Source of the DNA: an uncultured Gammaproteobacteria bacterium
GTDB lineage: Bacteria > Patescibacteriota > Patescibacteriia > UBA11705 > DATKZF01
Direction of reading: 5' to 3'
NCBI GenBank assembly: GCA_964411255.1
Contig: CAYPKD010000003.1
Coordinates: forward strand, 92,439-156,438
DNA: 64,000 nt
The notes beneath the pieces were generated by a model. The model made no database searches, had not been told where the DNA came from, and worked only from the letters and a program-made list of their open reading frames with translations. This document shows, in pieces, positions 898 to 51,811 of this stretch. Position 1 is the first letter of the stretch, and each line of letters opens with the position of its first letter. Both the position numbers and the translations under genes were made by a program.

Positions 898-1158
898 TTA
901 TTTTACTGGGTCATCCCCTCCCTTAGACCATGGGTTACATCTCATAATTCTCCAAATTCCTTTAGCGCAGCCTCGAATAAGTCCGTATTTTGCAATCGCC
1001 TGATAAGTATATTCTGAACAAGTTGGATGATAGCGGCAATAACCGCCAGGGAATAAATCTTTAAAGGGTCCGTGATCAAAAGAAAAAGTCCGTTGATAAA
1101 AACGAATCATTTTTAACCCAATTATCTTAGGATATTGAACAAAAGTATTTTTATCCAT
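898..1158 (-). CDS. yidD: Membrane protein insertion efficiency factor YidD
   Basis: 86-aa protein carrying the [19 protein letters not shown] hallmark. It overlaps the rnpA stop by 8 nt, the classic rpmH-rnpA-yidD order. Confidence 0.85.
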
Positions 1159-1519
1159 TTGTTTTGTAAAATTTTATTTTTTTCAATAAAGAATCTACTT
1201 CTTTTTCAAGATCATTAAAAGACAAATCAACTATTCCCTTTTTTGTAATAATTAAAATGTCATAACCTTGTTTAAATTTATTTAAATTCAACCGAAAAAT
1301 TTCTCTTAACCGTCTTTTTACTAAATTTCGCTTGGTGGCGCGTTTATCTATTTTTGTTGAAATTACAAAAGCAAAACGGCTTATATCTAAATCATTTTTT
1401 AAACTTTTTAAAATCAAATGATTGCTAGAGGCTGAATAACCTTTTGCCTTTTTAAATTCTGATCCAAAAAACTTATCAAAATCTGTCTTTTTTGTAATTC
1501 GATGTAATCTTTTTAACAT
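1151..1519 (-). CDS. rnpA: Ribonuclease P protein component
   Basis: 122-aa basic protein with the [25 protein letters not shown] RnpA motif region, located directly downstream of rpmH. Confidence 0.85.
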
Positions 1520-2041: not shown

Positions 2042-3436
2042 ATGACACAAGATAACGAGCAACTCTGGCAAGCTGTGCTCGGTGAATTAGAGCTCAATTT
2101 AAGCAAAGCCAGCTTTACCACTTGGTTCAAAAATACTTTTATTATTGAAAATGAAGAGGGGCGTATTATTATTGGCGTCCCAAATACCTTTTCTCAGGCC
2201 TGGCTGAAACAAAAATACCACAATGACATTTCTAAAACTCTGCAGAATTTGACAGGACTAAGACTTAAAGAAATTTCCTATAAAGTCCAAAACAAAAAAG
2301 ATTTTAAACCAATTGAAAAAGAACCTGAACATAAAATTGAAATAAGTCAAACTGAAATTAAACAAAAAACAGCTGAGTCAAGCTATACGCAGCCGTCAAG
2401 CGAAGAACCACATCAAAACATAAACCCTAATTATGCTTTTGTCACCTTTATCGTTGGCAAAAACAATGAATTAGCTCAGGCTGCTTCTAAGGCAGTGGCT
2501 GAAAATCCAGGATTTACTTATAATCCTCTTTTTATTTATGGCGGAGTTGGTCTAGGAAAAACTCATCTTTTACAAGCAATTGGTAATGATATTGTTGAAA
2601 AAGACTCAAATAAAAAACTTCTCTATGTTACCTGCGAACAATTTACAAATGACTTTATCAATTCGATATCTGCCGGAAATACAGAAAAATTTCAAAAACA
2701 TTATCGTACCCCTGATGTACTGCTAATAGATGACATTCAATTTCTTACTGGAAAAGAAGGAACGCAGGAAGCTTTCTTTCATACCTTTAATGACCTGCAC
2801 CAAAGGAACAAACAAATTGTTATAACTTCAGACCGGCCTCCAAAAGCAATTGCTACATTAGAAGACAGGTTATTATCAAGATTTGAATGGGGAATGATAG
2901 CTGATATCTCACAGCCTGACCTAGAAACACGAGTAGCAATATTAGAAAAAAAATGTCAGGAGAAAAACTGCGAATTAGACAGGGACATAATCAACTACAT
3001 TACTCAAAACATTCAAAATAATGTCAGAGAATTAGAAGGGGCGCTAAATAAGATAATTGCCTATCATCAATTAAACAAAATTCCACCAACAATTGAGAAC
3101 GTAAAAAAAATAATATTTTCATTAAGCAATGCTGGTGGGCAAAAAGCTTCCATTACCCCTAAACATATGATCGAAACGGTCGGAAAGTTTTATGATATAA
3201 GCACAGATGACATAATTGGAAAATGCAGACAAAAAAGATTAGCTTTTCCAAGACAAATCATTATGTTTTTAATGAGAGAAGAAATGAGATCTTCTTATCC
3301 GTCAATTGGCCAAGAACTAGGAGGCAGAGACCATACAACCGCTATGCATGCCCATACAAAAATTTCAGACTTACTTGAAAATGATGAGAAGCTCAGGCAG
3401 GAAATAAACTTAATCAAGCAACTTTTATACCAATAA
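2042..3436 (+). CDS. dnaA: Chromosomal replication initiator protein DnaA
   Basis: 464 aa. N-terminal DnaA domain (WQAVLGELELNLSKASFTTWF), AAA+ Walker A GGVGLGKTHLLQAIGN, and a C-terminal DNA-binding domain. Confidence 0.95.
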   Translation: MTQDNEQLWQAVLGELELNLSKASFTTWFKNTFIIENEEGRIIIGVPNTFSQAWLKQKYHNDISKTLQNLTGLRLKEISYKVQNKKDFKPIEKEPEHKIEISQTEIKQKTAESSYTQPSSEEPHQNINPNYAFVTFIVGKNNELAQAASKAVAENPGFTYNPLFIYGGVGLGKTHLLQAIGNDIVEKDSNKKLLYVTCEQFTNDFINSISAGNTEKFQKHYRTPDVLLIDDIQFLTGKEGTQEAFFHTFNDLHQRNKQIVITSDRPPKAIATLEDRLLSRFEWGMIADISQPDLETRVAILEKKCQEKNCELDRDIINYITQNIQNNVRELEGALNKIIAYHQLNKIPPTIENVKKIIFSLSNAGGQKASITPKHMIETVGKFYDISTDDIIGKCRQKRLAFPRQIIMFLMREEMRSSYPSIGQELGGRDHTTAMHAHTKISDLLENDEKLRQEINLIKQLLYQ

Positions 3437-3559: not shown

Positions 3560-3650
3560 AATTATCCAACCACTTATTCACAACAATGACTTTAAAAATA
3601 ATCAATATAATTAAGATTAAATTAGTTTTACCACTCTATCCACAATATTA
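3560..3650. promoter_or_regulatory. DnaA-box cluster / probable DNA-unwinding part of oriC between dnaA and dnaN
   Basis: TTATCCAAC at 3562-3570 and CTATCCACA at 3636-3644 sit in a highly AT-rich spacer. Confidence 0.4.
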
Positions 3651-3699: not shown

Positions 3700-4830
3700 A
3701 TGAAATTCATTTGTACGCAAGAAAATCTAAATAGGGGGTTGTTTATTACTGGTCACTTGTCAAACAAGAATGTTAACTTACCAATTTTAAATAATGTCTT
3801 AATGAAAATAAAAGACGGTATTTTAACATTGGCTTCGACAAATTTAGAAATAGGAATAAGTTGTTCTGTTCGTGGAAAATCCGAAAAAGAAGGTGAATTC
3901 ACAGTTGAATCAAAATTAATAGCTGACTTTGTTAATTTATTATCAAATCAAAAAGTTGAAATAGAATTAGATAAAGATGATTATTTAAATATTAGTACTG
4001 CCAATTCAAAAACCAGAATAAAAGGTTTACCATCAACTGACTTTCCAGTAATTCCTCAAATTGAAAAAAAAGATCCGTATATTATAAATATTAAAGATCT
4101 TCAGAAAGCAATATCTCAAACAATTTTTGCAGTATCGACAAATGAATCAAGACCAGAAATAAACGGTATTTTTATGAGCTTTCACAATGAAACTGGTAAA
4201 TTGACATTGGTTGCCACGGACAGTTACAGACTAGCTGAGAAAAAAATAGAAATTGCCGGGAATAGCAAAAAACAAGAATTTATTGTACCAGTAAAAACGC
4301 TGCAAGAGCTTCTTAGAATATTAACAGTTCTAAAAGATGAACCTGAGGCAGTAGAAAATGTAAATGTTTATACTTCTGAGAATCAAGTTTTATTTTCAAT
4401 TGATAACGGAGTAGAAATAATTTCCAGAACAGCAGAAGGGCAATACCCTGATTATAGGCAGATTATTCCAGGTGAAAATAAGACAAAGTGTACTTTAGAG
4501 ACAGCTCATCTTTTAAAAACAATTAAAACAACAAGTTTGTTTTCTAAGACTGGAATTTTTGATATCAATTTGGAATTTTTACCTGAAAAGAATAGTTTGG
4601 TAGTTTCTTCAACTAATAATCAGCTTGGAGAGAGTGTTGCTGAGATAGAGGTTGATTTTCATGGCGATAAAAACCAGTCAGTTATAAATTACAGATATTT
4701 GCTTGATGGTTTGAATAATTTAGACAGTGAAAAAGTATCGCTGGAATTAATCGACGGTAATGTGCCTTTAGTTATTAAACCAGCAGAAGATACCAGTTAT
4801 TTGTATATTGTAATGCCGATTAAACAATGA
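3700..4830 (+). CDS. dnaN: DNA polymerase III beta sliding clamp
   Basis: 376 aa, directly downstream of dnaA, with the three-domain clamp length and a typical N-terminus (MKFICTQENLNRGL). Confidence 0.9.
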   Translation: MKFICTQENLNRGLFITGHLSNKNVNLPILNNVLMKIKDGILTLASTNLEIGISCSVRGKSEKEGEFTVESKLIADFVNLLSNQKVEIELDKDDYLNISTANSKTRIKGLPSTDFPVIPQIEKKDPYIINIKDLQKAISQTIFAVSTNESRPEINGIFMSFHNETGKLTLVATDSYRLAEKKIEIAGNSKKQEFIVPVKTLQELLRILTVLKDEPEAVENVNVYTSENQVLFSIDNGVEIISRTAEGQYPDYRQIIPGENKTKCTLETAHLLKTIKTTSLFSKTGIFDINLEFLPEKNSLVVSSTNNQLGESVAEIEVDFHGDKNQSVINYRYLLDGLNNLDSEKVSLELIDGNVPLVIKPAEDTSYLYIVMPIKQ

Positions 4831-6088: not shown

Positions 6089-6601
6089 TTAAGTGGATTT
6101 TGCATCTTTTAAACTAACATTATAATCAACAACTACAATTTTATTATCTATCAGTCTGATATAAAAGGCCATATGCGGAACTTTGGGAAATTCCAGCTTT
6201 AATATCTGTTTAACTTCCTCCACTGAAGGATCATCTTCAAACTCGAGCCATGAACCGTTTTCACTCGTATTTACAATATAGTCAGTATTGTGAAATGCTT
6301 TTTCCTCTTTTCTAATAACTGATCCTAATTGTTTAATTAGGAAATTTTTTTTACCAATTTGATTAATTTGGTTTTTTAAAAAAAATGCAAACACAACACA
6401 ACCGAGAGTACATAAGAAAAGCAAAGTAAAGAGCGGCCATACAACTTTAATAAATTTATCAGGAATTTCTTTAAAAGGATAAAGCAGAGTTATCATGAAG
6501 GTAAGGCAAATAATCAGAGTAAAGAAAAGACAATGTATGATATAATTTCTGAATAATTTGTCAATTTTATTTTTTTCAGAGCTGCTCATTTTTTCCTCCA
6601 T
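6089..6601 (-). CDS. Hypothetical membrane protein (2 TM helices)
   Basis: 170-aa ORF with an N-terminal hydrophobic region. Confidence 0.45.
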   Translation of the reverse strand: MEEKMSSSEKNKIDKLFRNYIIHCLFFTLIICLTFMITLLYPFKEIPDKFIKVVWPLFTLLFLCTLGCVVFAFFLKNQINQIGKKNFLIKQLGSVIRKEEKAFHNTDYIVNTSENGSWLEFEDDPSVEEVKQILKLEFPKVPHMAFYIRLIDNKIVVVDYNVSLKDAKST

Positions 6602-6995: not shown

Positions 6996-8396
6996 ATGAG
7001 TGAGATGGACGTTAGGAAGAATCCTTCGGAGTTTGAAATTAAGATTTTGGGAAATAAGAAAAAAGTCGGTGCTGCTTGTTATGCTTACATTAAGTATCTG
7101 ACAGATGGTACACGCCAAATTATATTAATTGATTTTGGATCTGATCCATCGCGTTTTCTTGATATGGAAAATGGCAATGGTAATATTGACACCAGTGTTT
7201 TGCCTGATCTTGATTGGGTAAAAGAAAACCAAAAAGATATTATTGCTATTTTTTTCACCCATGGTCACATGGATCATATTGGTGGAGTGAGATTTTTGCC
7301 TCAAGAATTGCTTGAAAGAGTTGCTATGTTTGCGACGCCATATACAGCTACATTGTTGCAAGATGGAGATAGGGGTTTTCGTGGAGAAAGAAAGCAGCTG
7401 GTAAATATTACAACTTTTGACGCGCAGCTTCTTGAACCGATTGAAATCGGGGTTTTCAATGTAACTCCATTTCCTGTTCCTCACAGCGTTCCAGATGCTT
7501 GCGGCTATATGATTGAAACCAGAGATCCGATGAAAAAAGTGGTTCATATCACTGATTTCAAATTCAATGGTTTGGATCATACTGATAAGATGCGCCTGAC
7601 CAGAACTTTGGGCGCAATTGGCCGTCATATTATTGATACACTTGTTATTGAAGCTTTGAATGCTCGCTTTGAAGGATATACTCCTCAGGAGAATTTGACT
7701 TTTGAAGCAATTTTCAACCTGGTTGAAACCATTCCTGATGATAAGCGAGTGATTATTACCCATTTTGCTTCAAATGTGTATCGAATGCGGGCAATACTTG
7801 ATATTGCCAGATATACAGGTAAAAAATTTGCTCTGGACGGAACTGCGATGAAAAAACACTTCAAACGTGCTAAAGAGCATGAGTTCATTGATCGCGGCTG
7901 GCAGCAAACATTTCCAAATAATGCAAGAATGATCTTAGTTACAGGTTCTCAGGGAGAACCACAGGCGGTTTTGGCAAAAGCTGTAGATAACTTGATTGAT
8001 TTGGAAATTGATGAGAATGATGTGGTTATTTTCTCATCAAATGTTATTCCTGGGAATGAAGATGATTTTGTGGATTTGGTTCTGGATCTAGAAGATCTGG
8101 GTGCTACAATCTATGTGGATGCAAATTCTGATTTTGAAAATTTTGATGATTTGGATATTCACTTAGTTGAAAATCTTCATGTTTCCGGACATGGCAACTG
8201 GGCAGACAAACAGCGGGCAATTGAATTGATTCGTCCTCAGAAAAATATCCTAATGGTTCATGGTGAAGAATCAGATGAAGATGATTTTCGTAGCCGAATT
8301 GATGAATTGAAAAAAATTGAGGCTGAAAGTAAAACTGGTTCAATTTGGAGTCATCTAAAGGTGATCTCCAGTGAGATCGGATTAGTTTTGGTCTAA
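6996..8396 (+). CDS. RNase J-like metallo-beta-lactamase fold RNA hydrolase
   Basis: 466 aa with the HGHMDHIGG (HxHxDH) MBL motif. The N-terminal region resembles RNase J, but it is shorter than canonical RNase J. SD gaaaggag precedes the ATG. Confidence 0.6.
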   Translation: MSEMDVRKNPSEFEIKILGNKKKVGAACYAYIKYLTDGTRQIILIDFGSDPSRFLDMENGNGNIDTSVLPDLDWVKENQKDIIAIFFTHGHMDHIGGVRFLPQELLERVAMFATPYTATLLQDGDRGFRGERKQLVNITTFDAQLLEPIEIGVFNVTPFPVPHSVPDACGYMIETRDPMKKVVHITDFKFNGLDHTDKMRLTRTLGAIGRHIIDTLVIEALNARFEGYTPQENLTFEAIFNLVETIPDDKRVIITHFASNVYRMRAILDIARYTGKKFALDGTAMKKHFKRAKEHEFIDRGWQQTFPNNARMILVTGSQGEPQAVLAKAVDNLIDLEIDENDVVIFSSNVIPGNEDDFVDLVLDLEDLGATIYVDANSDFENFDDLDIHLVENLHVSGHGNWADKQRAIELIRPQKNILMVHGEESDEDDFRSRIDELKKIEAESKTGSIWSHLKVISSEIGLVLV

Positions 8397-13284: not shown

Positions 13285-13533
13285 TTAATGACTAGATTTA
13301 ACCAGATTTTCTTTTTCAATTTTCGTTAAACGTTTTATTTGCGCTTCTCTTTTCTGTGCTTCTGATCGGCTGTTAAATTTTTCAAAATAAACAATTTTTA
13401 CAGGTCTTCTATATTTTGTATATTTAGCTCCTTCGCCTTTATTATGCTTTTCTTCTCTAGCTTTAATATTTATACAAGATCCTGTGTATAACGAATTGTC
13501 ATTACATCGGGCAATGTATGTGAAGTATTTCAT
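13285..13533 (-). CDS. GIY-YIG nuclease superfamily protein (UPF0213/YhbQ-like)
   Basis: 82 aa. YIARCNDNSLYTGSCINIKAREEKHNKGEGAKYTKYRRPVKIVYFEKFNSRSEAQKRE matches the small GIY-YIG domain pattern. Confidence 0.75.
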   Translation of the reverse strand: MKYFTYIARCNDNSLYTGSCINIKAREEKHNKGEGAKYTKYRRPVKIVYFEKFNSRSEAQKREAQIKRLTKIEKENLVKSSH

Positions 13534-13614
13534 TTTAATATATAAAAGATTTAATTAATTTGTATCACTATTTATGGCTGTGCTATTCGAAGTTCGCCAA
13601 AGGCGAACGAAGAA

Positions 13615-13690
13615 TGGTGGACCTGACTGGACTTGAACCAGCGACCTCCTCCATGCCATGGAGGCGCTCTACCAACTAAGCTACAGGCCC
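13615..13690 (-). tRNA. tRNA-Ala(GGC) with G3:U70 identity pair
   Basis: Hand fold: GGGCCTG acceptor with G3-T70, anticodon loop ATGGCAT, T-arm GTCGC-TGGTTCAAGTCC region, discriminator A, CCA. Confidence 0.8.
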
Positions 13691-27171: not shown

Positions 27172-27475
27172 AAAATACAAAGGGGCACTACTACGACCCA
27201 ATTGTTTAAAAGTGGCCTGTGTGCCCCTAGAAGTAAAGGAGATTACGCTACTTCCATTTCGATTTGGAGAATCGAGCTGGAAGACAAAGCGATTTCCTGA
27301 TTTTGCGCTCGACTCGCGATCCAGTCCCCGTTTCCTAGGTGTTGCCTTAGGCGCAAGGTCACCGTTCATTTTGTTTTTGTTTTTGTTTCATTACAGGAGT
27401 CCTGTCGAGGCGGGGCTCGCTGTATAAGAAAACAGGATGACTGGAGTTTTCCTAGGTTAGAAAAACTCAGTGAGG
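27172..27475 (-). ncRNA. Candidate structured non-coding RNA or long leader of the dksA-like/lspA operon (class unknown), ending in an intrinsic terminator
   Basis: About 48% GC over roughly 300 nt in an AT-rich genome. No convincing ORF: frames lack SD and read through the terminator hairpin ggggcac..gtgcccc (27183-27227), which is followed by tttgtattttt on the minus strand. Class-specific motifs for tmRNA, RNase P, SRP RNA and T-box were not found by eye. Confidence 0.3.
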
Positions 27476-27689: not shown

Positions 27690-27726
27690 TGTGGATAACC
27701 TATATAAAAGTGGGTACTTATCCACA
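27690..27726. promoter_or_regulatory. Inverted pair of perfect DnaA boxes (TGTGGATAA ... TTATCCACA) flanking a TATATAAAA element
   Basis: 27690-27698 is the reverse complement of TTATCCACA. 27718-27726 is TTATCCACA. A 19-bp spacer contains tatataaaa. An 18-bp near-palindrome gtacacactagtgtatac follows at 27733-27750. Confidence 0.5.
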
Positions 27727-27739
27727 GCGAAAGTACACA

Positions 27740-28948
27740 CTAGTGTATACAAATCGCTATTCTGTCTGTTGATCTATTGATTAGAATATTTTCGAAAATG
27801 AATCGTGATGGGTCATTAATGTAAATGATATTATTTTGGCCATTTTTGTTTAGTGTTGTCAAGCCACATTTTTCATATTTGATTTGATCTGAAAAAGATA
27901 GTGTATGATCAATATTTGATAATTGGATAAAATTTTGATCATAAAGCCTTAAATAATATTTTTCATTTTGGTGGGAAATTGAAAGGCTACCATTTTCATT
28001 TTCTTGCCAATTATATACTGTCCTGTCAGCAATTATTTGAGTTGAGATTGAACCATCTACCAGCCGTTTTGTCTGCTTTTTGGGGTATTTGTAAGCTAAA
28101 TGATCAATTATGCTATTTTTTATTGTATTTTCTGCTGTTTTTGGCGCTAAAACCAGCCAATTATCTTCATCATTTATCAATAAATCAATACAGGTATTAG
28201 TATTTGCTAGAAAGGGAATTTTTGTGAGATTATTGTTGCTTGTTGATAAATTGTTAATATAATACTGATAATTTGAAAAATCAGGAATTTGTATATTATT
28301 TTTACAATTATTTGGGTTTTTTAGCTGTTTTGCGCTTAATTTCGTAAAATCATTTTCAATTTGTATTTTCCAAAAGGTCTCTTCATCAAGAATCAGCATA
28401 TTTTCATTAAAATATGGCAGATCAGAATAATCTTTAATATAAATGTTTGCCTTTGAAAAATCAAAGCGTTTTTTTGTTCTATATGTATGATTGTTTGATA
28501 ATGGCTGATTTTCATCAATTACTGTCTTTACTATACTCACATTTTCTGTTGATTCAATTGCATAGCTATTATATTTCAATGATTTTGAGAAAATATTAAA
28601 ATCTGTTGGTTTGAAAATAAAAATCCATTGCTTTTCCGCCTGAATAATTGCGAATTCTGAAGAATTCATCAATTTTTCCTTAAAATTATCAGGAAAATTT
28701 TTATTTTCTGATGCAGATTCAATTATTTTGTCTAGGTTAGCACTTTCTTGTTGAAAAATTTTCTTTATTTTCCAATGGCTATATACATTTACATCTTCAT
28801 TAACAAAATCATCAATTGAATCAAAATGATAATTGAATAAAAAGAGGATAAAAAGAAAAATTCCTCCTAAAATCATAAGTAAAAATATAAGCAGAGGAAT
28901 TTTTCTTCTTTGGTGAGTTGCGTTATCTTTTATATTTAGCTCGATCAT
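27740..28948 (-). CDS. Hypothetical membrane-anchored protein (Asn-rich)
   Basis: 402 aa with an N-terminal TM helix. Its start overlaps the pnp stop by 26 nt. Confidence 0.45.
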   Translation of the reverse strand: MIELNIKDNATHQRRKIPLLIFLLMILGGIFLFILFLFNYHFDSIDDFVNEDVNVYSHWKIKKIFQQESANLDKIIESASENKNFPDNFKEKLMNSSEFAIIQAEKQWIFIFKPTDFNIFSKSLKYNSYAIESTENVSIVKTVIDENQPLSNNHTYRTKKRFDFSKANIYIKDYSDLPYFNENMLILDEETFWKIQIENDFTKLSAKQLKNPNNCKNNIQIPDFSNYQYYINNLSTSNNNLTKIPFLANTNTCIDLLINDEDNWLVLAPKTAENTIKNSIIDHLAYKYPKKQTKRLVDGSISTQIIADRTVYNWQENENGSLSISHQNEKYYLRLYDQNFIQLSNIDHTLSFSDQIKYEKCGLTTLNKNGQNNIIYINDPSRFIFENILINRSTDRIAICIH

Positions 28949-32419: not shown

Positions 32420-33379
32420 ATGCCAACAAAAACAGAAATAGAAAAATTAATTCAGGATTTTTTAGAAGATCTTGAAATAGCTTATAATCGCTCTCTTCGG
32501 ACAGTGACTAATTATAATTTTTATTTATCTCGTTTTGCTGATTGGTTAAAGGAAAATAAAATTACAAAACCGCAAAATATAACCCAAAATCATATCAGGC
32601 AGTATCGGTTATGGCTTAATCGATTAAAAAGCAATAAAAAAGAAGGATTAAAGACTAATACGCAGAATTATCATTTGATTGCTGTTCGTGCCTGGCTAAA
32701 ATATTTGGCAAAAAGAGATATGAATACTTTAGCGCCGGAAAAAATTGATCTGGCAAAAGTGCCGATTCGCACTGTGGATTTTTTAGATGGCTCAGATTTA
32801 GAAAGATTGCTTGAAGCCCCTCTAAAAACAAATAATATTGGCATTATTAAAAAACGAGATAAAGCAATATTAGAAACTCTTTTTTGCACCGGTCTACGTG
32901 TTTCTGAACTGGCAAATTTAAAAGTCGATTCAATAAATTTAAAAAAGGATGAATTTACTGTCAGAGGCAAAGGTGATAAGCCAAGAATTGTGTTTTTATC
33001 AAATCAGTCAAAGTTTTGGATTGCAGAATATCTTAATATGCGAAAAGATTCAAACCCTTTTCTTTTTATTTCACATGACCGGGCATCAAAAGGAAGAAAA
33101 ACAATTGAGCAAACCGGCCTCACCCCTAGAAGCATTCAAAGATTGGTAGAAAAATATGCAAAGGCCGCAGGGATTACAAAAAAAGTAACACCTCATACGA
33201 TGAGACACAGTTATGCCACTGATCTTTTAATGAATGGAGCAGATATTAGAAGCGTACAATCAATGCTTGGTCATGCCTCAATTACTACCACGCAAATTTA
33301 TACCCATATTACAAATCAGCAGCTTCGGGATATACATAAGGCTTTTCATGGACGAAATAGAAGAAAAAAGAAATCCTAA
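32420..33379 (+). CDS. xerD: Tyrosine site-specific recombinase (XerC/XerD family)
   Basis: 319 aa with the C-terminal catalytic HTMRHSYATDLLMNGADIRSVQSMLGHASITTTQIYTHI (R..H..R..Y). Confidence 0.8.
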   Translation: MPTKTEIEKLIQDFLEDLEIAYNRSLRTVTNYNFYLSRFADWLKENKITKPQNITQNHIRQYRLWLNRLKSNKKEGLKTNTQNYHLIAVRAWLKYLAKRDMNTLAPEKIDLAKVPIRTVDFLDGSDLERLLEAPLKTNNIGIIKKRDKAILETLFCTGLRVSELANLKVDSINLKKDEFTVRGKGDKPRIVFLSNQSKFWIAEYLNMRKDSNPFLFISHDRASKGRKTIEQTGLTPRSIQRLVEKYAKAAGITKKVTPHTMRHSYATDLLMNGADIRSVQSMLGHASITTTQIYTHITNQQLRDIHKAFHGRNRRKKKS

Positions 33380-44011: not shown

Positions 44012-45241
44012 TTATTGTAATTTTTTTTTCTCCAAATATTTAGTAAAAGATGTTATTCCGTATGGATCTTTGGCTTGAACATCTTTATGAAAGATATAAG
44101 CCCTTGCTTGGCATTCTCGAAGTCCATTATTTCTGAATTGGTTAAAAATTTTATGGTTTTGCCATTTTTGTAAAAAATGATCATCAAAGGCTGGTAATTC
44201 CCTGTCTTGATAATAGCCTGCAGCAACCAAAGATGGACAAGTTATCATTTTTCCATTCACATCTATCACCAGCCCTGATCTAGTGGCTCGGCATTCATTT
44301 CTTGGCGGAAGCCCAAGAAGTTTTGAAACGATTGCAGCATTGGAAATTCCAATTTTTTCACCTTTATTTTTTCTTAAATTAAATAAGGTGATAATTAAAT
44401 CAAAAAAGCTTTGCGGTTCTGGTATCAGATTTCTATGTTCAGGCTGAAAGGGTTTGAATAAATTGAAATTGCATGGGATTCCAAGTTGTCTGCAATAATC
44501 AATTATTTGTTGATAAAACAAGATATTAATTGAATTGATAGTAAAAGTAGTTTCCACAGCTAAGCCCTTGCTTGTCAATATCCGTAGAGTTTTGTCTACT
44601 TTTCTAAATACTCCTTTACCTCTGATTTTATCATGAATTTTTTTTGTTCCATCAAGGCTAACTAAAAAAGTTAATCTTTTGATTTTGGCTAATTGTTCGA
44701 GCATCTCATTATCAATTAAAGTTAGATTGGTAACAAGATTAATCGCCATTTGATTTTGCTGGCAAGCTTTAATTATTTTCAACAAGCCTTTATGCCTTAG
44801 GGGCTCCCCGCCTATTAGGCTGACTTCAAATATGCCATTTTTAGCCAAAAGATTTACGGTATCAATTGCTTTTTGTGTGGGAACAAATATTTCTTGGTGT
44901 TCAGCCTGAAAACAATGTTTACATCGGAGATTGCACGAAGTTGTAATTTCAAATTCTACGCCCAAAGGCATGTCAAGTTGCCTTTGTTCTAGGACATTAA
45001 AGCCAGACGGCTTTATTTCTTCCTGAATTTGTTGTAAAAATTCAATTACGTCATTGAGAGCCTGAAAAAGTGAAATGTGAAATTTTTTAGATATAGACTG
45101 AGCAATAGAGTCAATATCTTTTTCATGGTTAAAAAATAAATCTAAAATATTTTTTCCAATTTTATTAATTTCAATCACTCGTCTGGTATCTAAAAAGTAG
45201 GCTATATATTGTTCTTTTTCTTGCCTAAATCGCACTAACAT
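44012..45241 (-). CDS. Radical SAM / SPASM(twitch)-domain enzyme with N-terminal PqqD-like RRE region; putative RiPP maturase
   Basis: CNLRCKHC (CxxxCxxC) at about residue 100. The C-terminal Cys cluster (NECRAT.., ITCPSL, RECQAR) is consistent with SPASM/twitch. The N-terminal 90 aa (IEINKIGKNILDLFFNHEKDIDSIAQSISKKFHISLFQALNDVIEFL) resembles PqqD/RRE. SD AAAGGAG precedes the ATG. Confidence 0.8.
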   Translation of the reverse strand: MLVRFRQEKEQYIAYFLDTRRVIEINKIGKNILDLFFNHEKDIDSIAQSISKKFHISLFQALNDVIEFLQQIQEEIKPSGFNVLEQRQLDMPLGVEFEITTSCNLRCKHCFQAEHQEIFVPTQKAIDTVNLLAKNGIFEVSLIGGEPLRHKGLLKIIKACQQNQMAINLVTNLTLIDNEMLEQLAKIKRLTFLVSLDGTKKIHDKIRGKGVFRKVDKTLRILTSKGLAVETTFTINSINILFYQQIIDYCRQLGIPCNFNLFKPFQPEHRNLIPEPQSFFDLIITLFNLRKNKGEKIGISNAAIVSKLLGLPPRNECRATRSGLVIDVNGKMITCPSLVAAGYYQDRELPAFDDHFLQKWQNHKIFNQFRNNGLRECQARAYIFHKDVQAKDPYGITSFTKYLEKKKLQ

Positions 45242-45266
45242 TGGCCGCTCCTTTTTGGGTTATAAA

Positions 45267-45290
45267 AGAGGTAATGATGAAATTACCTCT
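45267..45290 (-). terminator. Intergenic hairpin between precursor-like gene and radical SAM gene (attenuator/partial terminator)
   Basis: agaggtaat-gatgaa-attacctct followed by ttttat on the transcribed strand. Confidence 0.45.
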
Positions 45291-45302
45291 GCCAGTCTGT
45301 TG

Positions 45303-45515
45303 TCATGGCAATTTGATAACACATGACGCCCCCTTTTTTTTGAGATTGAGGGTTGTTTCGAGTCTGATCAGGGCAGACGCGAATGCTTTCCCAGCGTGTT
45401 CTCCTGATTGTAATCCCCCAGGAGAACCACCGCAGCTTGTTAGGCAGCAACCTGATTCTACGGGTTCTGGAAAGTAGCCGCGTCTAAGTACCTTTGGTTT
45501 TTGGTACTTCCTCAT
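45303..45515 (-). CDS. Candidate RiPP precursor peptide (70 aa; Cys/Gly/Pro/Ser-rich core)
   Basis: Strong SD AAGGAGGA lies 7 nt before the ATG. Sequence: MRKYQKPKVLRRGYFPEPVESGCCLTSCGGSPGGLQSGEHAGKAFASALIRLETTLNLKKKGASCVIKLP. GC-rich codons. Stop is 60 nt upstream of the maturase start. Confidence 0.5.
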   Translation of the reverse strand: MRKYQKPKVLRRGYFPEPVESGCCLTSCGGSPGGLQSGEHAGKAFASALIRLETTLNLKKKGASCVIKLP

Positions 45516-45643
45516 TGTGAGGTCCTCCTTTTTGTGAAGGTTCTAGAAATGGGGTAAAATTTTTACCAAGGACTGCTTTAAGCTTATGAAATATATTTAT
45601 TTTTGTCAAATAAAAAAATGCGGTTTTTTCGCATTATTTTTTA

Positions 45644-49580: not shown

Positions 49581-49657
49581 TGGCGTCCGCGGATGGACTC
49601 GAACCATCAACCTACAGCTTAGAAGGCTGTTGCTCTATCCGGTTGAGCTACGCGGAC
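49581..49657 (-). tRNA. tRNA-Arg(UCU)
   Basis: Hand fold: GTCCGCG acceptor, anticodon stem ACAGC/GCTGT with loop CTTCTAA, T-arm GATGG-TTCGAGT-CCATC, discriminator G, CCA. Confidence 0.8.
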
Positions 49658-49895
49658 CGAAAACTAAAATCACCTCACTATTATATCAAATTTCCAGAAT
49701 TGAGTCAATAAAGCAAGGTATATGGATATAATGTGTAAATTCCAAGTAAAATGTTTGATATTTGAATTAAAATATGTTATATTTGAGTATATTTTAGGTA
49801 AAATAGATAAAAATTGGATGAAAATTGCCTTTTGCGACACATATCCATGTATAAAATTAGGCAAATATTTGAAAAAATAGTATATAATGACGGAG

Positions 49896-49915
49896 AATGT
49901 TTCACGTGAAACATT
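49896..49915. promoter_or_regulatory. Perfect 20-bp palindrome AATGTTTCACGTGAAACATT (CACGTG core), copy 1, just downstream of a TATAAT box
   Basis: TATAAT at 49883-49888, with the palindrome starting 8 nt later. About 40 nt upstream of tRNA-Arg(CCU). Confidence 0.5.
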
Positions 49916-49957
49916 TTGGATGCGAATTTCAAATTTCAATTTTTTAATTCCCAAAAT

Positions 49958-50034
49958 GCACCCGTAGCTCAGTTGGATAGAGCGAGACACTCCTAACGTC
50001 TAGGTCGCAGGTTCGATCCCTGCCGGGTGCGCCA
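49958..50034 (+). tRNA. tRNA-Arg(CCU)
   Basis: Hand fold: GCACCCG acceptor, anticodon stem AGACA/CGTCT (A31-C39 mismatch) with loop CTCCTAA, T-arm GCAGG-TTCGATC-CCTGC, discriminator G, CCA. Confidence 0.75.
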
Positions 50035-50088
50035 TCCTTCGCTCTCGCCTCGCGAAGCTCGACTTGAGCTTCGGATGGCGCAGTCACT
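50035..50088 (+). repeat. Conserved tRNA 3'-trailer element (copy 4, plus strand)
   Basis: tccttcgctctcgcctcgcgaagctcgacttgagcttcggatggcgcag shares TTCGCTC and GAGCTTCGGATGGC modules with the minus-strand copies. Confidence 0.55.
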
Positions 50089-50343
50089 GAAAGTCTACAT
50101 TAATTGATCCACAAAGGCATTTACCTGAGATGATTTGTAATTAAGGTCAGTAAGTAACTGACAATTGTATACACTGGTCTATACTTTTAGATGTCAAATC
50201 CCCTATTTGGGGACTTTTTGTTGACAAATAATAAATAGATATTTTGGAAAAATAAGGATTTAATTAACAATGCTATAGGAATATGTTTTATAGTATTTGC
50301 ATAATTGAATACATTGTAAAAATAGAATTCATGGACAAAAAAA

Positions 50344-50361
50344 ATGTTTCACGTGAAACAT
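50344..50361. promoter_or_regulatory. Perfect 18-bp palindrome ATGTTTCACGTGAAACAT, copy 2
   Basis: About 150 nt upstream of the 50509 gene. The adjacent ccttttgcgacaca motif is also repeated at 49833-49846. Confidence 0.5.
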
Positions 50362-50508
50362 AATATTACCTTTTGCGACACAACACTATGTTATTTATGT
50401 AAATTTAGCTAAAATATTAAAAATCTGTTAAATATTTCGAATTTTTGACAATTTTTTGGAAATGTAATAAAAAAGAGACAGTAGATCTTTCACAAAAAGG
50501 GGGAAAAA

Positions 50509-50937
50509 GTGGAACGAAAAATAGCTGAATACGAGTTTGTTGACTGTAAATGCTGTAAAGGCAGTGGAAAATGCAGCTGCTGCAAGGGAAACAGAAGGGT
50601 AAAAACAGAACTCAGAGTTGTTCATTTAATTCCAGAGGATAAAGTAATTGTTGAAAAAAGCTCTAGAAAATATGATAAAATGAAAGAAAAATACGACAAA
50701 ATTGGATTTGATTTTCTTATTGTATCAATGATAACAGTGGTGGCCTTAATGATTCTAGGAATCGTAACGAAAAGTTTTATTGTTTTAATAGGGATTGTCA
50801 TTCCTGTATTTTTCCTATATTTAACACTTATCATTTATGGAAAATCAGATGAGTGGTGGAAAAAATATTTAGAGGTTCGGTACGAAATCGCAAATAAATA
50901 TGGTATAGAGAAAGAAGAGATCTTTGTCATAAAATAA
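50509..50937 (+). CDS. Small membrane protein with N-terminal DnaJ-type double CxxCxGxG zinc-finger motif
   Basis: GTG start with SD AAGGGGG. CKCCKGSGKCSCCKGN followed by two TM helices. Confidence 0.5.
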   Translation: MERKIAEYEFVDCKCCKGSGKCSCCKGNRRVKTELRVVHLIPEDKVIVEKSSRKYDKMKEKYDKIGFDFLIVSMITVVALMILGIVTKSFIVLIGIVIPVFFLYLTLIIYGKSDEWWKKYLEVRYEIANKYGIEKEEIFVIK

Positions 50938-50984
50938 AACCGTCGATCATATTCGACGGTCTTTTTAATTTCAAATTATACAAA

Positions 50985-51206
50985 TTATAATTTTATTTCA
51001 ATTAATTTTAACGGAGAGCTTTTACCAACTTTTATTGAGATATTAGACTTTGGAATATTAAAATGTTTTGAAATTAATTCAATCAATTGTTTATTTGCTG
51101 CGCCATCAACTGGCGCTGCAGTTAGCTTCACCTTAAATTCAGTGTCAGATAGGGGAATGAGCTCTGTTTTTTTTGATTTAGTTAATACCTTTACAGTAAT
51201 GATCAT
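50985..51206 (-). CDS. DUF167/YggU-family (UPF0235) protein
   Basis: 73 aa. VKLTAAPVDGAANKQLIELISKHFNIPKSNISI pattern. Overlaps the tsaC stop by 4 nt. Confidence 0.65.
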   Translation of the reverse strand: MIITVKVLTKSKKTELIPLSDTEFKVKLTAAPVDGAANKQLIELISKHFNIPKSNISIKVGKSSPLKLIEIKL

Positions 51207-51811
51207 ACAATTTTTGAAACATCACCTTTTCCTTGTCTTAAAACAATTGGCTGTTCTTGAGTTAAATCTAAAACTGTTGATGGCTCAGCTTTCAAAATTC
51301 CAGCATCTAAAATAAGGCCTATATTTCCATCTAGATTTTTTTCAATTTCAATTGGATCTGTAAAATGTGGTTGGCCTTTAATATTTGCACTTGTAGATAC
51401 TATTGGATTTCCTAGCATTTTTGTCAATTCTAAACATATTGGACTATCAGGAATTCTAATTCCTACAGTCAATCTTTTTGGCAGAATCTGTTTTGGAATA
51501 AGTTTTGTTGCTTTAAGTACAAAAGTATATGGCCCAGGACTTAGCATTTTTATTATTCTAAAAGCCGCATCACTTAATATTGCATATTTACTAATATCTT
51601 TTAAATCTGGCACAATGAAACTCAGTCCTTCAGAAGTCGGTTTTTGTTTAATTTTATAAATTTTTTGAATTGCATCAGGATTTAATGCATCACATCCAAG
51701 TCCATAAATTGTATCTGTTGGATAGGCAATAACGCCTCCTTGCTTCATTATTTCAACAGCTTTTTTTAGTTTTGGATACTCTGGAGTCTCCTTGTTGATT
51801 TCAATAAGCAT
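51203..51811 (-). CDS. tsaC: L-threonylcarbamoyladenylate synthase (YrdC/TsaC)
   Basis: AYPTDTIYGLGCDALN and VSTSANIKGQP motifs of the YrdC/Sua5 domain. Confidence 0.8.
   Translation of the reverse strand: MLIEINKETPEYPKLKKAVEIMKQGGVIAYPTDTIYGLGCDALNPDAIQKIYKIKQKPTSEGLSFIVPDLKDISKYAILSDAAFRIIKMLSPGPYTFVLKATKLIPKQILPKRLTVGIRIPDSPICLELTKMLGNPIVSTSANIKGQPHFTDPIEIEKNLDGNIGLILDAGILKAEPSTVLDLTQEQPIVLRQGKGDVSKIV

Follow-up and report, generated by a model that had tools for sequence, protein, structure and literature searches.

The parS sites of chromosomal ParABS systems occur as a few clustered, origin-proximal copies that are conserved across relatives. The scheme by which ParB acts there as a clamp, builds a partition complex and loads SMC has been established in other bacteria, and paired sites of the ParB type are known to undergo bridging or condensation. 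Related ParB-fold CTPases likewise read palindromes of 14–16 bp, as in the Noc-binding sites (NBS, ATTTCCCGGGAAAT), which are dispersed over the chromosome and excluded from the terminus, and the KorB operators (TTTAGCSGCTAAA). A more elaborate arrangement is found in the centromere of the P1 plasmid, where parS combines box A heptamers and box B hexamers with an IHF bend. Chromosomal parS sites have been tabulated for several species, with TGTTNCACGTGAAACA listed for Bacillus subtilis and Corynebacterium glutamicum, GTTTCACGTGAAAC for Mycobacterium smegmatis and TGTTTCACGTGAAACA, at two sites, for Hyphomonas neptunium (PMC7022226). For the Patescibacteria (CPR) or Saccharibacteria our literature search found no specific study of parS or ParB. 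The locus described here, which in contrast to the chromosomal parS sites described elsewhere belongs to an uncultivated Patescibacteria/CPR bacterium, carries the same 16-bp palindrome as the Spo0J sites of B. subtilis and the parS sites of Caulobacter crescentus and H. neptunium, set within an arrangement of its own.

A search of the window, the whole 64-kb stretch of DNA analysed, located two exact copies of the 18-mer ATGTTTCACGTGAAACAT, at 49897–49914 and 50344–50361. The first copy, here labelled parS_A, is extended to a 20-bp perfect palindrome, AATGTTTCACGTGAAACATT, at 49896–49915, with the core TGTTTCACGTGAAACA at 49898–49913. The second, parS_B, is an 18-bp perfect palindrome at 50344–50361, with the parS 16-mer at 50345–50360 as its core. 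Neither is assigned a strand, and the two are spaced 447 bp apart. Between them lies the gene for tRNA-Arg(CCU) (49958–50034, plus strand; called by ARAGORN, 63.2 bits to the Rfam tRNA model, with an encoded CCA), which lies 43 nt downstream of parS_A. The first-pass annotation had reported perfect palindromes of 20 and 18 bp around this tRNA gene, and direct reading and the exact search both bear this out. Rfam detected nothing besides the tRNA at E ≤ 1 over 49650–50520. Chance expectation for the 18-mer in the window is 0.03, and none of 100 shuffles contained two or more copies. No third match was present in the 64 kb even when up to three mismatches were allowed, and the 12-mer core, searched with up to two mismatches, gave only chance-level matches elsewhere. 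Two clustered copies in 64 kb at this tolerance are also not what a high-copy interspersed repeat looks like, a possibility that had been raised at the outset.

Both copies match the 16-bp parS consensus tGTTNCACGTGAAACa at 16 of 16 positions, and they correspond to parS rather than to the NBS or the KorB operator. Their clustering near the origin likewise differs from the dispersed distribution of the NBS. Among the matches listed for the core TTTCACGTGAAA in the full-text literature, all concern ParB, Noc or parS. The first-pass annotation had suggested a palindrome search as a route to the cognate regulon. Run on the 64 kb, this search gave no further copy. Scanning one genome per species (596 Gb) we found the exact 18-mer in at least 120 species, where by our own arithmetic chance alone would give about nine. 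These loci, at least 120 in number, span the Actinomycetes (including Streptomyces), Clostridia, Bacilli, Alpha-, Beta- and Gammaproteobacteria and Bacteroidota (including Bacteroidales), with Spirochaetes, Chloroflexota, Acidobacteriota and one Saccharibacteria genome also among those listed. At about 29 of the 120 loci listed, two to four copies of the 18-mer lie within a few hundred bases of each other. At 45 of the 120 the same 8-kb block contains an ORF with the arginine patch of ParB, GERRxRA, and at 44 a ParA-type Walker ORF, nearly always beside the ParB ORF. As the listed loci are both widespread and linked to parAB, the sequence behaves everywhere as a ParB centromere site. We regard it as very probable that both palindromes are chromosomal parS, that is, origin-proximal loading sites for the CTP-dependent clamp protein ParB (Spo0J). 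The parS identity itself is that of a textbook element, and to this extent the core finding is an ordinary one.

To compare the locus with related genomes, relatives were fetched through the neighbouring TsaC gene (51203–51811). The names carried by homologues of this TsaC put the organism in the Patescibacteria/CPR, close to Falkowbacteria. Four loci carrying the same zinc-finger protein (L001–L004) were 100% identical to the window and, being uninformative, were left out. The five relatives retained have TsaC identities of 88% (L128), 83% (L213), 79% (L208), 70% (L129, the same as L209) and 69% (L210). All five share with the window the order DUF167, parS, spacer, tRNA-Arg(CCT), parS, tRNA-Arg(TCT), tRNA-His and a cold-shock protein (CSD), so that the tRNA-Arg(CCU) gene lies between two parS sites in every one of them. 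The parS cores are invariant at all 16 positions in 12 of 12 syntenic sites (six species including the window), and L129 has in addition a third copy with one mismatch (CACCTG). The spacer of 260–610 nt between the sites has a mean column identity of 36%, and the flanking intergenic DNA is largely unalignable, with only short islands surviving. A more distant locus (L212, TsaC 63%) carries a symmetric variant, TGTTCCACGTGGAACA, in which the perfect palindrome is retained, as expected for a site bound by a dimer. At the other 78 loci of the metagenome scan, with TsaC identities of 56% or below, no parS was found near TsaC.

The same comparison bears on the earlier proposal that the palindromes are operators for a dimeric regulator of the tRNA and of a small zinc-finger membrane protein encoded downstream. 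The GTG-initiated ORF itself is present as described, at 50509–50937. It had been read as a DnaJ-type double zinc-finger protein with two transmembrane helices; the CxxCxGxG-like motifs are there (CKCCKGSG and CSCCKGNR), and a single hydrophobic stretch, at about residues 63–113, is long enough for two helices. Its sole Pfam match is weak and below the curated cut-off. The gene occurs only in the window and in L213, where the homologous protein is 70% identical, and is missing from L128, L208, L129 and L210. All four of these relatives keep both palindromes, with parS_B lying directly downstream of DUF167. The absence of the gene from four of the five relatives that retain both sites does not support a gene-specific operator, and indicates that the palindromes are conserved for their own sake and not as the control region of this gene. 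The proposed control of the zinc-finger gene thus falls away, and no regulator is encoded next to the sites.

Some observations do speak for an operator. The TATAAT box that had been noted ahead of the first palindrome is present, at 49883–49888, 8 nt 5′ of the 18-mer in copy A. It lies inside the spacer of a promoter-like pair, TTGAAA-N18-GAGAAT (49869–49898, plus strand), with 9 of 12 consensus matches, whose GAGAAT hexamer overlaps the first bases of parS_A. In the same alignment columns L208, L129 and L210 have TTGAAA, TTGGTG and TTGACA, respectively, each followed by N17 and TATAAA and abutting the upstream parS; these assignments, like that in the window, are consensus matches only. The zinc-finger gene follows copy B at a distance of 150 nt, and the ATGT…ACAT ends of the palindrome presumably resemble PadR-type operators. 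Yet the palindrome has exactly the sequence of the universal parS, its neighbours include no transcription-factor gene, and there is no further copy upstream of any gene in the 64 kb. In most species copy B sits past the point at which a convergent gene ends, and L128 has no recognisable promoter at the place corresponding to that upstream of parS_A. The promoter of the neighbouring tRNA-Arg(TCT), by way of reference, is canonical (TTGACT-17-TATAAT). A PadR-type ATGT-N-ACAT operator, a CRP/FNR box and a Rex-type box were each considered and dropped, the literature match to parS being exact. We consider it improbable that the sites are operators of a gene-specific dimeric transcription factor for the tRNA-Arg(CCU) gene, the zinc-finger gene or both, and we extend this judgement to a softer version in which ParB throttles the tRNA. 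As speculation from the overlap of promoter and site, ParB bound at parS_A might dampen tRNA-Arg(CCU) transcription. What survives of the original proposal is the dimeric binder, almost certainly a helix-turn-helix protein; the full consensus match points to ParB in place of a gene-specific regulator.

We also considered whether the palindromes could act at the level of RNA, as hairpins or weak intrinsic terminators, with parS_B ending the tsaC-DUF167 operon. All six species have five to eight T residues after parS_B, read in the sense of DUF167 transcription, and this would fit such a role. Despite this T-run the palindromes lack the stable G+C-rich stem that, followed by a U-tract, makes an intrinsic terminator. 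The hairpins are weak, at −5.5 kcal/mol for copy B (z = −1.2) and −9 kcal/mol for copy A (z = −1.9), with stems of seven pairs (two of them G-C) and ten pairs, respectively, and a terminator scan did not report them. Where the zinc-finger gene is present (window and L213), it and its own strong bidirectional terminator (50936–50963 in the window) separate DUF167 from parS_B, yet the palindrome is unchanged. Furthermore, an RNA stem would tolerate compensatory changes, whereas all 16 positions are invariant across the syntenic sites. A function as RNA hairpins is accordingly a very improbable account of the palindromes, and ParB loading sites are the reading we carry forward.

Two hairpins of a different kind do lie downstream of the tRNA gene. 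The first, GTATACAC..GTGTATAC, is conserved; in the window this element, E3, is an imperfect palindrome, GTATACACTGGTCTATAC, at 50167–50184 on the plus strand, followed by TTTT and located about 130 nt 3′ of the tRNA. It is kept in L128, L208 and L213, and more weakly in L129. Since the variants keep their pairing through G-U on the transcribed strand, we read E3 as an RNA 3′-end hairpin, and it is probably an RNA 3′-end or terminator element. The window holds a second copy at 27733–27750, adjoining two perfect DnaA boxes. Further downstream, at 50199–50220 on the plus strand, a terminator-like hairpin, TCCCCTATTTGGGGA, with a T-run closes the tRNA-Arg(CCU) unit before parS_B, and a similar hairpin and T-run can be read in L128 and L208.

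The start of the window provides a position for the pair relative to the replication origin. The window itself corresponds to positions 205,669–269,668 of a metagenomic contig of 388,698 bp (ENA ERZ27256770). Here we identified yidD (898–1158, minus strand; ORF reading and Pfam YidD), rnpA (1151–1519, minus strand; ORF reading and Pfam Ribonuclease_P), an rpmH-sized gene at about 1600–1740, dnaA (2042–3436, plus strand; Pfam Bac_DnaA) and dnaN (3700–4830, plus strand; Pfam DNA_pol3_beta). An exact DnaA box is present at 1921, and two more, each with one mismatch, at 3574 and 3636 in the AT-rich dnaA-dnaN spacer. The rpmH-rnpA-yidD and dnaA-dnaN arrangement with its DnaA boxes at 1–5 kb places the parS pair about 46–48 kb from dnaA and the origin. 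The largest contigs of the relatives are 0.62–0.76 Mb, and we judge this placement to be origin-proximal. A second pair of DnaA boxes, both perfect, at 27.7 kb counts against fixing the origin exactly, and GC skew across the window was too noisy to place it independently.

This raised the question of where the cognate ParB is encoded. In contrast to chromosomal parS sites elsewhere, parA and parB neither adjoin the sites nor occur within 84 kb, comprising the window and 10 kb on either side, as searched with Pfam and with a ParB HMM. We built the latter from 43 ParB ORFs that adjoin the 18-mer in other genomes; it found no match among the ORFs of the window (best E = 0.78) or at the parS loci of the relatives, and motif searches of the window for GERRxRA and KGGxGKT were likewise negative. 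We infer that the lineage has a cognate ParB because a site with ParB specificity is strictly conserved. In this scheme a ParB dimer would recognise each 16-bp palindrome through its helix-turn-helix domains, close as a CTP-bound clamp and slide onto the flanking DNA, where further ParB would join to form a partition complex marking the origin region. The complex would load the SMC condensin and, where ParA is present, would be moved by it. The effect of two parS sites 447 bp apart would simply be faster loading at a single locus.

A further element accompanies each site. The 14-mer CCTTTTGCGACACA that had been noted beside each palindrome is indeed duplicated, and in differing relative order, with the 14-mer preceding the palindrome 5′ of the tRNA and following it 3′ of the tRNA. 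The positions first given for it (49833–49846 and 50366–50379) were wrong, however, and the copies lie at 49828–49841 and 50369–50382. A 30-nt direct repeat with 80% identity (49821–49850 and 50362–50391) has the 14-mer as its core, as does a motif that we term D1, with the consensus TTAYCTTTTGCGACnCA. D1_A (49825–49841, plus strand) is centred 72 bp from the centre of parS_A, and D1_B (50366–50382, same strand) 22 bp from that of parS_B. The D1 core CTTTTGCGAC is found exactly at these two places only in the 64 kb. In all six species one copy stands beside each parS, always on the same strand. The centre-to-centre distance to parS_A is 72, 73, 83, 94, 94 and 94 bp, and that to parS_B is 22 bp in all but one of the species, which has 33 bp. 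These distances shift by 11 bp at a time, close to one turn of the helix, which suggests a constraint on the helix face and hence a partner of the parS complex at the level of DNA, although the phasing rests on perhaps three independent indels and its statistical weight is modest. Around parS sites in other phyla we counted 12 D1 matches against about 10.6 expected, which is no association.

Several other identities for D1 were tried. As a −35 element for sigma-70 its spacing to AT-rich hexamers would differ between module A (14 nt) and module B (17 nt), and the core occurs nowhere else in the 64 kb, while the real promoters look canonical. A sigma-54 −24/−12 element would call for a conserved GG, which is lacking; a dif/Xer site was rejected because L129 does not keep the arms, and an IHF site for want of a match. 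An element of the DUF167 3′-UTR was also rejected. D1_B is kept even in the genomes whose zinc-finger gene, with its terminator, cuts it off from the DUF167 transcript, which argues against such a role. D1 is most likely, from its position and phasing, an accessory or architectural DNA site of the parS complex.

Direct repeats around a tRNA gene could also mark a mobile element, with the palindromes as its repeat ends or as remnants of an attachment site at, or carried with, the tRNA gene. Transfer RNA genes are common targets of integration, the segment has D1 on both sides as direct repeats and the zinc-finger gene is variably present. Against this, the context from DUF167 to tRNA-Arg(TCT), tRNA-His and CSD is fixed in the six species, and it is short motifs alone, with no element body, that are conserved. 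The segment contains no integrase or transposase, the nearest tyrosine recombinase being XerC/D-like and 17 kb away. Such an origin is the least probable of the accounts considered here, and we find it hardly credible beside the assignment as parS.

The succession of D1, parS, tRNA-Arg(CCU), hairpin, parS and D1 is thus a conserved cassette specific to this lineage. It differs from chromosomal parS loci elsewhere in that a tRNA gene lies within the pair and in that an asymmetric motif peculiar to the lineage stands next to each site at a phased distance. That a parS pair encloses a tRNA gene is unusual: among the matches listed from other phyla, parS lies within 300 bp of a tRNA at 1 of 160 sites. 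There is also a likeness to the P1 centromere, in which an inverted repeat of the TTTCAC type is joined by a second, asymmetric short motif at a spacing that looks constrained. Box B of P1 is TCGCCA, compared with GTCGCA(AAAG) here. Unlike in P1, the D1 copies are direct repeats and are not mirror-symmetric about parS, their distances are 22/33 and 72–94 bp, and no IHF site was recognised; a domain of the lineage's ParB that would read D1 in the manner of box B would be hypothetical. It is possible, though we think it rather unlikely, that the cassette forms a composite centromere specific to the lineage, in which D1 would serve as the binding site of another factor, or of an additional domain of the lineage's ParB, that shapes the partition complex; expression of the rare-codon tRNA between the sites might be coupled to the complex as well. 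Taken to the extreme, the lineage might have no canonical ParB, with some other protein reading parS.

The reassignment removes a false lead, since the palindrome is the universal centromere sequence and not a novel operator or the signal of a new regulon. Together with dnaA, the two perfect parS sites give a firm landmark of the origin domain in an uncultivated, small-genome lineage of the Patescibacteria, and the pair would imply that this lineage has retained ParB-based segregation or SMC loading. Only the conserved architecture around the sites goes beyond textbook knowledge, and here the tRNA gene within the centromere and the D1 motif might repay further work. If real, the enclosed tRNA gene and the phased D1 would speak for a partition complex that this lineage assembles in its own way.

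The parS palindromes that enclose tRNA-Arg(CCU) are accompanied by an asymmetric motif, D1 (consensus TTAYCTTTTGCGACnCA), which is kept next to each parS in the window and in the loci of the five related species that share the cassette. The two D1 copies lie on the same strand in every locus, at 49825-49841 and 50366-50382 in the window, 1329 and 1837 in L128, 3384 and 3881 in L213, 6856 and 7721 in L208, 5870 and 6718 in L129, and 6863 and 7673 in L210. Measured between centres, D1 and parS are 22 or 33 bp apart at one end of the cassette and 72-73, 83 or 94 bp apart at the other, with the spacings at both ends differing by 11-bp steps.

Within the cassette, a strong G+C-rich hairpin (50028-50082) begins within the last bases of tRNA-Arg(CCU) and is predicted to pair with the acceptor/CCA end of the tRNA (-29.5 kcal/mol, z = -3.4). 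At the matching position L129 carries a G+C-rich insertion of ~290 nt (~6200-6490). In L210 the palindromic repeat AAAGTCTAGACTAGTCTAGACTTT occurs four or five times in the spacer between tRNA-Arg(CCT) and parS (7100-7420), which also contains a microsatellite, (AAAGT)n. On the other side of parS, the gene for the zinc-finger membrane protein varies in its presence: two of the six species (window 50509-50937 and L213 2828-3256, 70% identity) have it inserted between DUF167 and the cassette, with its own promoter-like site of the TTGACA type and a bidirectional terminator (50936-50963). The parS pair lies 17 kb from a gene for an XerC/D-like tyrosine recombinase (32420-33379, + strand), which contains Phage_integrase and SAM-like N-terminal domains; no dif-like site was recognised close to this gene or to parS.

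Two G+C-rich non-coding islands stand out from the genome (33% G+C), at ~27180-27430 and ~45241-45520. Both contain only spurious-looking ORFs, and neither matches an Rfam family when hits up to E <= 1 are admitted. The islands probably encode structured RNAs missed by current models, for example divergent CPR forms of tmRNA, RNase P, SRP or 6S RNA. Elsewhere in the window, the Rfam match to HPnc0260, a Helicobacter antisense RNA (13524-13653, + strand; 60.5 bits against a gathering threshold of 59), overlaps a tRNA-Ala on the opposite strand and is most likely spurious.

Besides parS we observed a second palindrome family, E3 (GTATACAC-YRG-GTGTATAC), the copies of which have common flanks, gcgaaa...caat, followed by TTT(T/C). 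E3 occurs at 50167-50184 and 27733-27750 in the window and at L128 1502, L208 7393, L213 3554 and L212 7130, the last in a more distant species; no matches are expected by chance. As the sequence variants retain base pairing via G-U, E3 probably acts as a hairpin at RNA 3' ends or as a terminator.

Just 6 nt from an E3 motif, and adjoining an AT-rich stretch, are two perfect, inverted DnaA boxes 19 bp apart (27690-27726). In L212 a parS variant, an E3 motif and two DnaA boxes (7163-7190) all fall inside 200 bp. The dnaA gene itself is ~25 kb from the window pair. DnaA could control a second site here, or the boxes could belong to the true origin.
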